Part shown: in pieces, positions 32,001 through 60,350 of the stretch
How the letters are laid out: every line of letters begins with the position of its first letter
Numbering within the stretch: the first letter of the stretch is position 1
Assembly (NCBI RefSeq): GCF_023055435.1
Contig: NW_025964383.1
Span: 9,858,001-9,922,000 of the forward strand
Direction of reading: 5' to 3'
Source of the DNA: Haliotis rufescens
Lineage: Eukaryota
Length of the DNA stretch: 64,000 nucleotides
Translations under genes and position numbers: made by a program
The notes under the pieces: model-generated
Told to the model about the DNA's origin: nothing
Database searches by the model: none
What the model saw: the letters and a program-made list of their open reading frames with translations, nothing else

Positions 32001-33963
32001 ATTTGTCCCTTTCCCCTATTTGATTGACTCGCAAATGAGACCACTGCTTTTCCACCATTAATACTAGTTAGTTCCTTGACAGAACGTGCTCCAACCACAT
32101 CATGTTCATTTCCATGTTTTTCATTGCCTTGTCTTTGGTCATGTTTTCGCCCTTCACTCATGACAGATGGGTGTTTTGGTATCCTTTTATGAAAGAAACT
32201 TAATGGTCTAAACAAAGCAGCCCCGACCCACATGTTCATTGTCAGCCCTGTTAGGATCAACATACTTCCTCTGACACCATATTCATCTAATAAGAAACGA
32301 ACGAGGGGTGGGAAAACGCTGCCCCCAATACTAATTCCAGACATGGCAACTGCTGTGGCAATGCCTCTTCTCTTTTTGAAGTACTTTCCGATCAATACCA
32401 ATGCTGGAGCATGAATCATGGAATGCCCTATACCTGAAAGTAAATTATTCATTATCATATATCATTAATGTTTTGTTCAAGATACTTACAGATTTACATG
32501 ATTACAATATCCTTCAATACAGCTTACACAGTTATATTATATATGCCACATCATGCTTTAATCTGATCATGTCTATGAAGCTTTATGTCTCTTTCTCATG
32601 CCAGAATTCTATACTCGATTTTCCAGTATATTTCTAAATGTTCAAGACTTGCATCACTTTGTTACGCCATTGTATGACTGAACTATTGTTATAGAGTGTG
32701 TTCAACTCATTCAAACCTCCAATAAAATCTTACATTTAGGAATAAGCTGCAGGAGTAAACTGTTTATAAACATATATGTAAAGATAATGATCATATAAAG
32801 TGACCTAATGTTACAAAATCCCATATGGATGCATTTACTTGAGCCATCAATTATTTTCTGTGCTATTATGGATTCGTGAACACGTATAGATTACGCACCA
32901 GTGAGAATGCTGTGAGTGCAGATGAGGTATGTAATACTGGTGGCGAAAACCCCTGTCAGCATTCCTACAACTGATATAGTCCCACCAAGAAGTACAGTCT
33001 TTCTCTCCCCAAGCAGTTGCAGAATTATGTTCATCGATAGGAGAGCTGTTGACATACAGAACATGGTTGTGTCAAAATAGGGAAAATTAGTACACTGTAC
33101 ATATATATGTAATTTGTACGACCACAAGGGTCAGAATATGTTATCAGTAGAGATGATATACGAGAGGGATTATTTTTGTCCATGATATGAAAGTATCATT
33201 GTAACAATATATTTATGGCCATTTTGTATCAGTATTCTTCAGTATTCAAGAACACAAGGATGTCTTTCTTTACCACAATAGTTTACATTTGCACGTACTG
33301 TTTAATACTCACAACTTATACTGTACGTCCCTGCCATCACACCCATGAACAAGGTTGTTTTTGTGGCAGATGCCTCGAATTCTTCCAAGTATGCCACAAA
33401 GAATATGGCAACGGACCGTCCATATCCAGCCAGTAACATAACATTCAGGAAACTCCCTGGAGAAGGTCAAAATACAAAATGTGGTATCAGTGATTACCAA
33501 GGCGTGTTTTTTCATAATTTAATTGCTTTCAAAATGCAAGAAGCAGAAACACATTTAATCCAGAATTCTTAATCTTAAGATTCCATACCCTATAGAATGA
33601 CAGAGTACTATATCTTATACTCTGTTATCTGGATGGATGTAGAAATATGCACAATCGATCACCTGCTAACACAAACCAAGCCCATCCACGATCTATAGGT
33701 ACACCATCATCCTCTTGCTCTGGTTGACTGTCATCTGGTAGCTCGCCATTACTACCATCATGCAACATGTTCTGCTTCTCGGCATCTCCCACAGCTACAG
33801 TCCCACCTTCTTCTGTCACCGTTCCCAACAAACTGTCTTCCCCATCAACGGCCTCTCCCGTCTTCGGTATGAACAGTTTTCCGTTGTTTGTACTTGGTGT
33901 CATAGCTTGATGTTCGCTTCTGCTAGCTTCGTCCTCCCGACACGTTTTTGAATCTTGTGTCAT
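29057..33963 (-). CDS. Gene D, SLC16/MCT family transporter, 630 aa; exons 33963-33663, 33456-33313, 33045-32899, 32433-31312, 29235-29057
   Basis: GT-AG phase-1 junctions, 1893 nt open frame; motifs PIDRGWAW, YFKKRRGIA, LDFFSR, GTIRDLTSSY. Confidence 0.92.
29448..29901. mobile_element. Older copy of the same MITE family, intron 4 of gene D
   Basis: Ends CATCTTCTGAGACAAGG...AAAGTCCAGTTTCCACCC and GAAACTGGACT...TCGGGAAGATG. Confidence 0.75.
30220..30745 (+). mobile_element. Old Tc1 transposase 3' remnant in intron 4 of gene D
   Basis: Around 30296-30348 the sequence reads MPWPAPSPDLSTIKHVW; boundaries approximate. Confidence 0.65.
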
Positions 33964-48700: not shown

Positions 48701-49686
48701 TCTCCCCAAGCAGTTGCAGAATTATGTTCATCGATATGAGAGCTGTTGACATACAGAACATGGTTGTGTCAAAATAGGGAAAATTCGTACACTGTATATA
48801 TATCATGTACCAAAATAATCCCTCTCGTATATATTCTGACCCTTGTGGTCTGACCCTTGTGGTCGTACAAATTATATATATATATATATATATAAAGTAT
48901 CATTATAACAATATATTCATGTCCATTTTGTATCAGTATTCTTCGAAGAACACGATGATGTCTTTCTTTACCAATATAGTTTACATTTGCACGTATTGTT
49001 TAATACTCACAACTTATACTGTACGTCGCTGCCATCACACCCATGAACAAGGTTGTTTTTGTGGCAGATGCCTCGAATTCTTCCAAGTATGCCACAAAGA
49101 ACATGGCAACGGACCGTCCATATCCAGCCATTAAAATAACATTCAGGAAACTCCCTGGAGAAGGTCAAAATACAACGTGGTATCAGTGATTACCAAGGCG
49201 TGTTTTTTTAAATAATTTAATTGTTTTCAAAATGCAAGAGGAAGAGACACATTTAACCCAGAATTCTTAATCTTAAGATTCAATACCCAATAGAATGATT
49301 ATGACAGAATACTATATCTTATACTCTGACAAACATATTTGTCTCTGTTATCTGGATGGACGTAGAAATATGCACAATCGATCACCTGCTAACACTACCC
49401 AAGCCCATCCACGATCGATAGGTACACCACCATCCTCTTGCTCTGGTTTACTGTCATCTGGTAGCTCGCCATTACCACCATCATGCAACATGTTCTGCTT
49501 CTCGGCATCTCCTCCAGCTCCAGTCCCACCTTCTTCTGTCACCGTTCCCAACAAACTGTCTCCCCCATCGACCGCCTCTCCCGTCTTCGGCACAAACAGT
49601 TTTCCGTTGTTTGTATCTGGTGTCATAACTAGATGTTCGCTTCTGTCAATTTCGTTCTCCCGACACGTTTTTGATTCTTGTGTCAT
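45785..49686 (-). CDS. Gene F, SLC16/MCT family transporter (paralog of D), 630 aa; exons 49686-49386, 49154-49011, 48742-48596, 48211-47090, 45963-45785
   Basis: Exon lengths identical to D (301/144/147/1122/179), GT-AG junctions, open frame. Confidence 0.92.
46173..46634. mobile_element. Same MITE, paralogous position in gene F
   Basis: Same TIRs; 9-bp TSD TAATGACAA / TGATGACAA. Confidence 0.75.
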
Positions 49687-54776: not shown

Positions 54777-57700
54777 TCAGATGCCTTTCAGTGGTCGGTT
54801 TTCTTCAATGTTCTTATGGGAGCTCTGTGACTTCATTCTGTTCGCCCGACCTCTGACGAGCGGTACACAAAATAGAAATATTGCAGCTATGAAGTTACAT
54901 ATTCCAATGTAGGTGAAACAAAGGTTGTATGAACTGGTCAGGTCACGGATTGTCCCTGTAAAAACAATACGCAGCAGGACATTAGAGTAACAACGTTGTC
55001 AGATTTTAAACGTTCCATTTAACAATAGCTAATACAGTCTAACATAACCAGTTGTGGTACTAAATAAAATGGATTTAAGTAATTAAACGCCTTACCCAGC
55101 AATATAATTTTAACACTTCTGACTAAATTATTAACTCGGGTAATAATGACAACATCTTCCGAGACAAGGCAGTTAATTGTCTATAAAAGTCCAGTTTCCA
55201 CCCTAGCTGAACCAGTGGCTATAACGAGTTATGTCATTTCTATGTCCCTCAGTGTATGAACTGGTCAGGTCAAGGATGGTCTCTGTAACAACAATACGCA
55301 GGACATTTGTGTCACAACGTTGTCAGATTTGAACAAAGATTTTAAACGTTCCATGTAACAATCGCTATTACAGACTAACATAACCAGTATTGGTACCGAA
55401 GTTAATGGAGACGTGGGTCAGTTATGTACGCCTAACTCGGTAATAATGACCCGGGTAATATGTCCTTAAAAGTCCAGTTTCTACCCTAACTGAACCAGTG
55501 GCTGTAACGAGTTATGTCACTTTTATGTCCCTCATATTGACAGATTGGACTTCACCTCTCATATAACTTTCATCTGCTTCAAACAAAATGTCGGTGTACA
55601 GTCGATCCGAGCAAGTTAATCGAAGAAAAGTCTCACATATCCTGTCTCAGACACCCAGTGCATGTTGAATGTAGCACGTTGAGCGTGGAGTACACGTTGA
55701 TTATAAAGCAAGTTTGGAAAGCATCTTCCGACGTCCAGACGTTACACATGCTTTGCAAATTCTGGAGTGGAGCAACACGACAGTCACAATGTTGTTTACG
55801 ACCATGATGTCGATTTTGTAATGCGATTTTGATTGCTAATCAAACTTCAAACGTCCAGCCTACAAACGTCAGTAATGTCCGTTGATTCGGGAAGATGTGA
55901 TGACAAGCAATCACAAATTGTGCCGGAACGTATTTACAACTGAAGTATGTTGGACTATGACCAGCACTGGTAATCTGATTTTGGACCCGTATTCCAAACA
56001 ATGTGGTGAAACTACAGAAAACTACGCCAATGTCTGGCAATGAAAGCAAGTGATGTGGCAAAAATTATTTCAGAAGAAATCAATCCTAACACATAGCATT
56101 GTGAACGGCATGAAGCACTTGACCCTGGACAGCACGTTGAAGGGGGTGGTATATCAGATTTACTATTCTCACTCAGACTCGGTTGTGAGCAGACGCATAT
56201 TGTTTTCCTGGAATCAAACGCTCAAAGACCCTATATCAAACACATGATTTAATCATTATGATCTAATTCGTCCAACTGCAAAACATCCATGAAATGCCAT
56301 GGCCAGCACCCAGTCCCGACCTTTCCACCATTAAACACGTCTGGACGTTATTGGCAGACGTGTGCGTCAACGTCACAATCCACCGACCAGTCTAAATGAA
56401 CTCGGTGCAGCTGTCACTTATGAGTGGAACAACACGAGCCAATCTGACATTTGTCGACATTATCAGAAGTTCTGCCTCGAATAACTCGTGCATTTCTGGC
56501 CAACAGAGTTGGTTGTTCCCGGCATGAGTGACGTTGACTGCAAAGCGCAAAGTGCAAATTTCGAATTTGACCCCTGACCTCATGAACGACGTCGTACGCC
56601 ACTATCCCACACCAACCACTAGAGCCCACATGATGTGATCGCCTACCCCTTAATAGATAAGATCATATCACTCCCATTTGCCAATATCATACAGTTGAGA
56701 ACATATGTCTTGATGACTCACACTGTCTCCTCCTTTATTTGCATAATATATAATGAAAATTATTGTCAGACATATTTGCAGTTCAAAACAAAATACTTTT
56801 AACTTGAATCACTTGCTAATGACTGTTTGTTGAAATGGGCCAATATTTCTTTTTAATGACATTCATAATATTTTACCATTACATACTTTTTTATGTATTA
56901 AGAACTGTCTTCACTCTGTTTCGTTTTTGGATGTATAAACCTAAAACCTGATGTGAACATTGTAAATTCGAATAGCTTCAGACAGTTCTTAGTATTTACT
57001 CAATATCACTAACAGATTGTAGACGAAATTGGTGACATCGTTCAGCGCAAGAATGCATCACCTTATTATTAGTCAATATATTTCTGTATTATGCATGGTT
57101 TGCTAACCAAATTTCATGGAAGCATTTACAAGTTATTATTAGAGTGTATAGACGGTTCCTGCTTGTGTAGAAGCTGTATTCCCTCACTTTTATCAATGTT
57201 ACTACTATATGTATGTTTAACACTGCTGTTGAGCTAGTAACTCCGTGAATACTGATGATCCATTGCAGCATAACATTAATAACATAAAATACAGAATGAG
57301 GATCTTACCCATGATCGGATGCGTCACGGATCTGGCTAAACCGTGGAACACAGCTATAAATCCAAGAACCTTCGCCATGTATTCAAGTCCCATGAAGTCG
57401 ACAATGGCAACAGGAATAAGGCAGTGATAAAAACTGCCAAAGAGTCCGACAATCACAGAGAATACGACGAGAAGAGCATACGTGTTGAAAAAATAGACAA
57501 ACTGTGTTGCCATTCCAGATATAAGCATTCCAATAACCATCAAATGATTTATTTTAATGTATTTGAGATCGGCGACAAACCCGACAGCAAGTCTGCTGAA
57601 GAAATCCAGAACACACGACAAAGTCAACAAATATGCTGCATCTGTTTGTGAGATGCCCTTTTCCTTTGCCAGGGCAGGAAGGTAGATTCCAACCAATCTA

Positions 57701-59054
57701 AATATTACCCCAAAATGAGCACATGCAACAATCAACTGAAACATTGGCTGCTTCAACAAGGAAAAGTCAAATGTTGATAATGCTCGTTTCACATACATGC
57801 CACAACTTTTGGCTTCTTTTGATTCCTGTTCATTGTCAAATGATTCAGCATTGATTTCTGTAATATCCACCATTGACATTGATGTCAAATCTGGGTTACT
57901 TGTGTACAATCTAATCTGGCTTTCTGAGCGGGAATCTACTTGTGATTCAATGCTGACAACTGATTCTGGTCTTGCACTTTTGCGGATAATTGCACTTGTC
58001 TGTCCCTTTCCTCTATTTGATTGACTCGCAAATGTGACCACTGCTTGTCCACCATTAACACTAGTTAGTTCCTTAACAGAACATACTCGAACCACATCAT
58101 GTTCATTCCCATGTTTTTCAATGCCATGTCTTTGGTCATGTTTTCGCCCTTCACTCATGACAGATGGGTTTTTTGGTATCCTTTTATGAAAGAAACTTAA
58201 TGGTCTAAACAACGCAGCCCCGACCCACATGTTCATTGTCAGTCCTGTTAGGATCAACATACTTCCTCTGACACCATATTCATCTAATAAGAAACGAACG
58301 AGGGGTGGGAAAACGCTGCCCCCAATACTAATTCCAGACATGGCAACTGCTGTGGCAATGCCTCTTCTCTTCTTGAAGTACTTTCCGATCAATACCAATG
58401 CTGGAGCATGAATCATGGAATGCCCTATACCTGAAAGTAAATTATTCATTATCAAATATCACTGATGTCTTGTTCGAGTTCCTTATAGTTTTACATGATA
58501 ATAAACATCCTTCAATACAGCCTACATAGTTATATTAAATATGACACATCGTGCTTCAATCTGAAAATGTCTATGGAGCCTTATGTCTCTTTCTCATGCC
58601 AAAATTCTTTGCTCGATTTTCCAGTATATTTCTAAATGTTCAAGACCTGCATGACCTTGTTATGCCGTTGCAAGCCTTCAATAAAATCTAACATTTAGGA
58701 ATAAGGTGCAGGAGTAAACAGTTTATAAACATATATGTATAGATAATGATCATATAAAGAGACCTAATGTTACAAAATCCCATATGAATGCATTCACTTG
58801 AGCCATCAATTATTTTTCTGTGCTATTATGGATTCGTGAACATGTATAGTTTACGCACCAGTGAGAATACTGTGAGTGCAGATGAGGTATGTAATACTGG
58901 TGGCGAAAACTCCTGTCAGCATTCCTACAACTGATATAGTCCCACCAAGAAGTACCGTCTTTCTCTCCCCAAGCAGTTGCAGAATTATGTTCATCGATAT
59001 GAGAGCTGTTGACATACAGAACATGGTTGTGTCAAAATAGGGAAAATTCGTACA

Positions 59055-59114
<60 letters not shown>

Positions 59115-59275
59115 GCACTGTAAAGTTCTAGTTCTAACTCTCAGGCACAATATAGTAATAATTAAATAAGTGGAGTAAGATTGAACACAGTTTTAACAGT
59201 TATTGCCTGATGAGAGTTGAAAGCGCTAGCCTATTAAAACTGTGTTCAATCTTACTCCACTTAATTAATTATTAC

Positions 59276-59307
<32 letters not shown>

Positions 59308-60230
59308 TGTATGTATGTATGTATGTATGTATGTATGTATGTATATTTAATTTGTACGACCACAAGGGTCAGAATATGTTGTCAGTAGAGATGGAATACG
59401 AGAGGGATTATTTTTCTCTATTATATGATATAAAAGTATCATTGCAACAATATAGTTATGTCCATTTTGTATCAGTATACTTCGGTATACAAGAACACGA
59501 GGATGTCTTTCTTTACCAAAATAGTTTACATTTGCACGTATTGTTTAATACTCACAACTTATACTGTACGTCGCTGCCATCACACCCATGAACAAGGTTG
59601 TTTTTGTGGCAGATGCCTCGAATTCTTCCAAGTATGCCACAAAGAACATGGCAACGGACCGTCCATATCCAGCCATTAAAATAACATTCAGGAAACTCCC
59701 TGGAGAAGGTCAAAATACAACATGGTATTAGTGATTACCAAGGCGTGTTTTTATTATAATTTAATTGTTTTCAAAATGCAAGAGGAAGAGACACATTTAA
59801 CCCAGAATTCTTAATCTTAAGATTCAATACCCGATAGAATGATTATGACAGAATACTATATCTTATACTCTGACAAACATATTTGTCTCTGTTATCTGGA
59901 TGGACGTAGAAATATGAACAATCGATCACCTGCTAACACTACCCAAGCCCATCCACGATCGATAGGTACACCATCATCCTCTTGCTCTGGTTTACTGTCA
60001 TCTGGTAGCTCGCCATTACCACCATCATGCAACATGTTCTGCTTCTCGGCATCTCCTCCAGCTCGAGTCCCACCTTCTTCTGTCACCGTTCCCAACAAAC
60101 TGTTTCCCCCATCAACCGCCTCTCCCGTCTTCGGCACAAACAGTTTTCCTTTGTTTGTATCTGGTGTCATAACTAGATGTTCGCTTCTGTCAATTTTGTC
60201 CTCCCGACACGTTTTTGAATCTTGTGTCAT
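54777..60230 (-). CDS. Gene G, SLC16/MCT family transporter (paralog of D/F), 630 aa; exons 60230-59930, 59699-59556, 59005-58859, 58430-57309, 54955-54777
   Basis: Exon lengths identical to D and F, GT-AG junctions, open frame. Confidence 0.92.
55153..55897. mobile_element. Same MITE, paralogous position in gene G, interrupted by a local duplication
   Basis: Same TIR ends and TSD as in gene F. Confidence 0.7.
56220..56750 (+). mobile_element. Paralogous Tc1 remnant in intron 4 of gene G (deleted in gene F)
   Basis: Colinear with 30220-30745, same WPAPSPDL motif. Confidence 0.65.
59058..59110. repeat. (TA)n microsatellite
   Basis: Direct. Confidence 0.95.
59111..59280 (+). mobile_element. 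Penelope-like/retrozyme-like fragment: 50-bp inverted repeat whose loop holds a minimal hammerhead motif
   Basis: Arms 59150-59199 and 59231-59280; loop contains GC-CTGATGA-GAGTT-GAAA-GCGC-TA-GC; absent from intron 2 of genes D and F. Confidence 0.6.
59278..59344. repeat. (TATG)n microsatellite
   Basis: Direct. Confidence 0.95.
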
Positions 60231-60350
60231 TTTTACTGTGATAGTATATCGGACCTATATAATTTATGAAACTGCATTTACACAATACCAATGTGACATT
60301 TTCCTAGAAAGTGAATGTGGCTGCTTGTAACTATAAGTGATTGTCTGAAT

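Follow-up and report, generated by a model that had tools for sequence, protein, structure and literature searches.

At issue in this locus is what kind of element has placed a hammerhead-like core inside a 50-nt inverted repeat within an intron of Haliotis rufescens, and whether that core is a ribozyme in use or a remnant. The window, that is, the whole stretch of 64,000 nt that was analysed, carries in positions 1-60350 about seven MFS_1 genes in a tandem array, present in both orientations and presumably monocarboxylate-transporter-like; three of them are 87-96% identical, introns included. The gene that hosts the insert, an MFS_1 transporter which we also take to be monocarboxylate-transporter-like, lies on the minus strand, and the hammerhead runs antisense to it in intron 2, as a sequence-only reading of the window had proposed. 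The letters on which that reading relied are all in place: CTGATGA at 59207-59213, GAGTT at 59214-59218 and GAAA at 59219-59222, followed by GCGC and TA (A59228), a second GAAAGC at 59111-59116, which is 108 nt before 59219, and AACTCTCAGGCA at 59136-59147. The inverted repeat (59150-59199 and 59231-59280) is likewise real, 50 nt long with 96% identity. The hammerhead core occurs once in the window and was matched in 0 of 100 shuffled sequences, and the predicted fold of the insert has a z-score of -13 against 200 shuffles.

These letters belong to an insert of 169 nt (59112-59280), a head-to-head pair of short pLTR end pieces of a Penelope-like retroelement (Table 1). Numbered from the predicted cleavage site, the insert reads on the minus strand from +84 back to +6 (left arm) and on the plus strand from -48 to +52 (right arm). 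The homologous arm is 47 nt long (59150-59196) and differs from its partner at 1 of 47 positions; the inner 3 nt of the 50-nt repeat belong to the junction. We regard it as highly probable that the insert is a truncated pair of head-to-head Penelope-like end pieces in a TA tract, with a hammerhead that lacks 16 nt of helix II and for which inactivity is predicted.

Table 1 Position of the insert, its parts and its surroundings in the window; positions with + or - are counted from the predicted cleavage site.
Feature	Positions	Strand	Remarks
Host gene, MFS_1 transporter	57220-60254	-	in tandem array; insert in intron 2 (about 59000-59554)
(TA)n target tract, left flank	59058-59110		expanded when compared with a paralogue's short empty site, rich in TA, at ~33099-33112
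Optional 3' tail of the element	59112-59149	-	+53 to +84
Left arm, inverted pLTR piece without hammerhead	59150-59196	-	+52 back to +6
Start of right arm (-48)	59197-59206	+	helix I 5' strand, including the CAGUU half of the distal stem
Hammerhead core CUGAUGA..GAAA	59207-59228	+	AGCGCU palindrome at 59222-59227; A59228 (CUA triplet) precedes the predicted cut
Right arm, +1 to +52	59229-59280	+	helix I 3' strand and pLTR to the short 3' end of the family; tail-less
(ATGT)n tract, right flank	59281-59345		followed by host intron sequence matching that after the empty site of the paralogue

A search of the genome yielded 87 scored matches from 624 candidates; exact patterns located 200 hammerhead cores and 252 3' anchors genome-wide, and control patterns 0. 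A Penelope origin had been suspected from the window, linkage to an ORF encoding a reverse transcriptase (RT) and GIY-YIG being named as a check, and family loci do contain such an ORF. In locus L094 it scores 31.1 bits for GIY-YIG (cut-off 22.6) and E = 7.6e-5 for RVT_1, which is below the Pfam cut-off of that model, and it has the RT motifs FDV, GTK and FLDD and a CX4CX2C linker at residue 337 of the piece; the DKG motif is present in L091. The order of domains in the family ORF is reverse transcriptase, CX4CX2C linker and C-terminal GIY-YIG. Among the family loci read, only broken or truncated copies and no intact full-length ORF were found. Four loci (L095, L098, L091 and L101) consist of an inverted pLTR piece, a truncated ORF and a second pLTR. 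In L236 the hammerhead, the tail and the start of the ORF follow one another in one direction, which identifies the segment as a pLTR; the pLTR with its hammerhead thus lies before the ORF in L236 (one locus, present three times) and after it in L095 and L009. The 3.4 kb of L236, L237 and L238 are the same almost letter for letter on the small contigs C542, C464 and C17, and represent either a tandem array or assembly duplicates.

By the definitions in the part of PMC8557442 consulted, where a CX2-5CxxC linker between RT and EN marks the Neptune and Nematis clades, the family is a canonical endonuclease-positive Penelope-like element of the joint Neptune/Nematis type. Assignment to the Hydra clade (DKT, CxCX5C linker) was ruled out by DKG and CX4CX2C. 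As far as the excerpts of PMC8557442 and PMC3846280 go, the likeness to Neptune/Nematis-type elements extends from the RT with C-terminal GIY-YIG, DKG and the CX2-5CxxC linker to the hammerhead in the pLTR, the adjoining inverted 5'-truncated copy placed head-to-head, the (TA)n targets and a tail of 30-40 bp at one end, here 32 nt. The insert has the same structure as the longer family loci; unlike them and unlike those elements, it is without any element body.

A DNA transposon of MITE type, bounded by terminal inverted repeats and inserted at TA, would also account for a 47-bp inverted repeat and a TA target, and 20 of the 35 close opposite-strand pairs in the family are short hairpin-like units. 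The arms, however, come from retroelement 3' ends and differ in length, the middles vary between copies, and longer members contain RT and GIY-YIG; a linked DDE transposase and numerous dispersed units, identical to one another and fixed at their ends, would be expected of such an element and were not seen. We give this origin practically no credence.

The tail clarifies several features that had been read from the window as parts of a self-contained ribozyme unit. It measures 32 nt in the family and 38 nt in the insert, owing to a 6-nt tandem duplication, and it is carried by the left arm only, in keeping with the inverted pLTR with one-sided tail that had been envisaged. The upstream GAAAGC, thought to be a second ribozyme boundary, consists of the tail end in antisense and one base of flank, and that base completes the motif at 1 of 55 tail ends, the insert's own. 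The supposed anti-ribozyme segment is likewise tail sequence, which shares its strand with the core in the element's own RNA; the apparent complementarity comes from the inversion of its arm, and in the fold of the insert locus it does not pair with the core. In one fold the tail end paired with the AAAGCGC of the core; no such match was seen in a second Penelope family described below, and this pairing was taken as chance. A search for sequence beyond the tail met 6 unrelated flanks. The family tail (+53 to +84) has TGTGC at both ends and, read in direct orientation, is similar to the 5' half of the core, and in L086 and L087 the portion between the two TGTGC repeats is lost.

With these assignments the proposed ribozyme-bounded unit of ~108 nt disappears, there being one core and no tandem unit. 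We still weighed a non-LTR retrozyme, in which such a unit with a built-in anti-ribozyme would spread by circular RNA: the core and palindrome are kept in the family, and an origin of retrozymes from Penelope pLTRs is reported in the available portion of 10.64898/2026.07.22.740005. That source and PMC7761336, as far as excerpted, describe metazoan non-LTR retrozymes with a type I hammerhead and a Penelope link, as here, but arranged as tandem units of 150-300 nt, whereas the insert is one damaged core of a coding family. The locus has one core and no tandem array; in 191 segments, same-strand neighbours lay 155, 284, 611 nt or more apart and none near 108 nt. The upstream GAAAGC is not conserved (1/55 tail ends), the collapsed variant is single-copy, and all its parts map to the pLTR of a coding element. 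The retrozyme reading is therefore extremely improbable, and the insert is better described as an end-piece pair of the Penelope-like family.

The hammerhead itself was compared with its relatives. A type I motif with palindromic helix III had been recognised at the locus, and both letters and palindrome are present; core and palindrome are also conserved across the family, where 81 of the 100 listed core matches have the full motif length of 41 nt. Family helix II occupies 21 nt and comprises a G-U pair, 8 Watson-Crick pairs and a 3-nt loop (9 bp). It is closed by G10.1-U11.1 in 95 of 96 full-length helices (drawn from 123 cores, seven cores of the second family being left out), and a G10.1-C11.1 pair is as a rule absent; the G-U closure, suspected of being damage in the insert, is thus the family state. 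In the insert, a deletion of 16 nt between GA repeats leaves helix II with 5 nt (59214-59218) instead of 21. The tiny helix II, which had been regarded as the normal state, is a deletion scar, and it is not the published type either: the excerpt of PMC4209133 reports 7-8 bp for the long helix II of metazoan PLE hammerheads. The family resembles the minimal type I hammerheads described there in its long helix II, short helix I and tiny palindromic helix III suited to dimers, and the same text mentions dual motifs on opposite strands 100-700 bp apart. It differs from them, as far as that source is concerned, in closing helix II with G10.1-U11.1 instead of the 'highly conserved' G-C and in having no extra base between 9 and 10.1, and the insert copy differs further by the loss of helix II. 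The insert also has T59204 in helix I where most family copies have G; the same T occurs in 5 of the 100 listed copies and was probably inherited.

Predicted folding agrees with the loss. In an isolated family copy helices I and II are both in the centroid, with pair probabilities of 0.66 and 0.97 and a palindromic helix III, against at most 0.005 in the insert copy, whose possible inactivity had already been suspected. With 180 nt of context the helix I pair probability of an intact family copy also falls to 0.003; folding alone hence separates live from dead copies weakly. The insert copy has the core letters that a hammerhead needs (CUGANGA, GAAA and NUH); the helices that it needs, I and II, are not predicted to form. 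A covariance-model search, which had been put forward as a check of the motif, gave no hit: the Rfam hammerhead models matched neither the insert copy nor an intact family copy up to E = 10. Since 16 nt of helix II are gone and no hammerhead helix is predicted, we consider the insert hammerhead probably inactive on the basis of these models. This is stated as likely only, because engineered minizymes can cleave.

We therefore considered that the collapsed motif might still act, alone or as a dimeric minizyme, or that the host gene has recruited the hairpin for its regulation. All core nucleotides are intact, as are the palindrome, for which a self-duplex of -8.3 kcal/mol is predicted, and two helix I pairs; in the part of PMC544870 consulted, hammerheads without helix II can retain some activity and engineered minizymes with a 5-nt linker cleave. 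Against this, helix II is closed around a 3-nt loop by G-U instead of G-C, helix I is down to its 2 pairs, and the motif is enclosed in the loop of a 47-bp stem. The core is moreover antisense to the host transcript, no core was found on the minus strand of the insert locus, and two paralogues manage without the insert. Transcription of the host gene, which reads the opposite strand, would yield only an intronic 47-bp hairpin. Taken together, activity or co-option appears very unlikely.

Collapse of helix II is not confined to this copy. A helix II of 12 nt or less was found at 9 places genome-wide with 6 different remnants, the insert's remnant occurring once, and from their sequences we read the nine as repeated slippage across the hairpin, presumably not a spreading variant. 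A remnant similar to the insert's, with part of the core missing, is present in L013. Internal deletions across the family cluster in the hammerhead, where some take out helix II by itself and another, at C68:30088883, the entire core between AGGC repeats, and 5' ends of family copies are rare inside the core (1/78 at -22 to -42).

The second Penelope family, 46% identical in protein to the first, was detected by 301 pattern matches, a few of them by chance (controls 9). Its helices I, II and III are made of different letters, yet pairing and palindromy are preserved, which supports selection on the hammerhead fold in these families; the CAGUU/AACUG distal stem is common to both. This second family (L202:2136-4172 in G000:C583, and L204-L223) has a canonical G-C-closed hammerhead with a 6-bp helix II and an AGUACU palindrome, an optional tail in 5 of 17, and an open RT-GIY-YIG stretch of 603 codons. 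The TA tract in which it sits often holds a copy of the first family as well (L006, L009, L018, L020 and L030). An 83-nt palindromic repeat of another family, present in many copies, lies at L094:5757-5840 (G000:C1).

The site of insertion was read from the paralogues. It was borne out that the insert went into a TA microsatellite and that two close paralogues (near 33100 and 48800) lack it at the corresponding TA position. Both paralogues are 87-96% identical around the site; one has a short TA-rich empty site, and in the other about 80 bp of flank lie locally inverted between two TA runs (48795-48895), possibly the scar of a break at the TA site without insertion. The insert is thus younger than those gene duplications. 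Over a 43-nt segment its arms show 0 and 1 differences from the family majority, while the mean divergence of the family is 3.2% over the same segment (163 of 189 segments, those with up to 6 differences). Contigs assembled from 4 runs of other individuals break at the flanking microsatellites.

The ends of the family copies bear on how such pairs form. All 35 close opposite-strand pairs are head-to-head and none is tail-to-tail, contrary to the tail-to-tail inverted pseudo-LTRs that had been expected; head-to-head is also given in the excerpt of PMC3846280 as the usual arrangement of inverted Penelope copies. Among 103 copies anchored regardless of tail, the 3' end lies at +52 in 34 and at +84 in 35, most others ending within a few bases, and family 3' ends finish in TATAT and T-run sequence resembling the TA target. 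After setting aside 4 duplicated loci, 31 independent pairs remain, of which 27 carry exactly one tail, 1 carries both and 3 carry none. Independence of the tails between arms is rejected (P = 1.5e-5; P = 5e-4 given at least one tail). The excerpts of PMC8557442 and PMC3846280 say of the tail 'often' or 'optionally' at one end; here the rule was counted. The tail sits on the shorter arm in 15 of the 27 pairs, including the insert, and on the longer arm in 12, in a sample partly picked with a tail-bearing query and with several arm-length calls near ties. Later deletions between TA repeats could be a source of tail loss.

The 5' ends were taken from local alignment in AT-rich sequence with duplicated loci kept in, and with that definition 0 of 103 fall exactly at the predicted cleavage site, while 3 of 103 lie at -2, a position at which TA could equally belong to the target. 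Their density is 0.47% per nt at the cleavage site versus 1.7-1.8% per nt at +5 to +10 and at -43 to -62. Such 5' ends flanking helix I, with no pile-up at the cleavage site, fit an uncleaved template, as in the portion of PMC11167929 considered here. The junctions of L003, L004 and L006 lie exactly at the inverted microhomology CAGTT/AACTG of helix I, and the junction of the insert adjoins it.

For such pairs we propose the following mechanism. The endonuclease would cut (TA)n on both strands, and each DNA end would prime its own cDNA on element RNA, one from +84 and one from +52. At the insert both cDNAs would have stopped early, at the two sides of hammerhead helix I, and then been joined; helix II may have collapsed by slippage across its hairpin, in reverse transcription or in later replication. 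We put forward tentatively, with less than even confidence, the wider reading that the stubs record the insertion process itself: the two ends of one (TA)n break would be primed independently, one end at each of two fixed RNA starts, every inverted insertion would gain exactly one tail, on either arm, and the hammerhead would be an uncut structural barrier, with stops flanking helix I and helix II skipped, and not the knife. Separate priming from two starts is the simplest reading of the arm contents taken with the in vitro two-start results in the available text of PMC11167929. There, green anole Poseidon likewise has two RT start sites bounding the tail, AT-rich DNA is cleaved on both strands and extended, and the hammerhead is dispensable for insertion, which agrees with the lack of 5' ends at the cleavage site here; the Poseidon starts, by contrast, lie 111-118 nt inside the ORF, at an AC-rich stem loop, whereas both ends here precede the first ATG.

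The same elements could instead have been inverted by fold-back self-priming of one cDNA, as proposed in the excerpt of PMC3846280, or by endonuclease resolution of one intermediate, as proposed for the tail in that of PMC8557442. Fold-back would explain why junctions are often at the CAGTT/AACTG microhomology of helix I. A fold-back copy cannot, however, carry sequence missing from its template, yet the shorter arm alone is tailed in 15 of 27 pairs, the insert among them. Each insert arm has sequence missing from the other, hence neither was copied from the other. The one-tail pattern and the shorter-arm tails favour two separate priming events over fold-back copying, and we consider inversion of a single cDNA or intermediate rather unlikely.

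The insert is real and explained, and its architecture is already published; as a decayed retroelement stub in an intron, this copy is of little weight in itself. The statistics of its family bear on the origin of inverted Penelope ends with their one-sided tail and on the role of the hammerhead, and the numbers are testable in vitro, namely the two starts, the single tail of each pair, its placement on either arm and the absence of ends at the cleavage site. If separate priming at two starts past an uncut hammerhead is true, the fixed G10.1-U11.1 pair of this family would be a natural test of whether cleavage matters.
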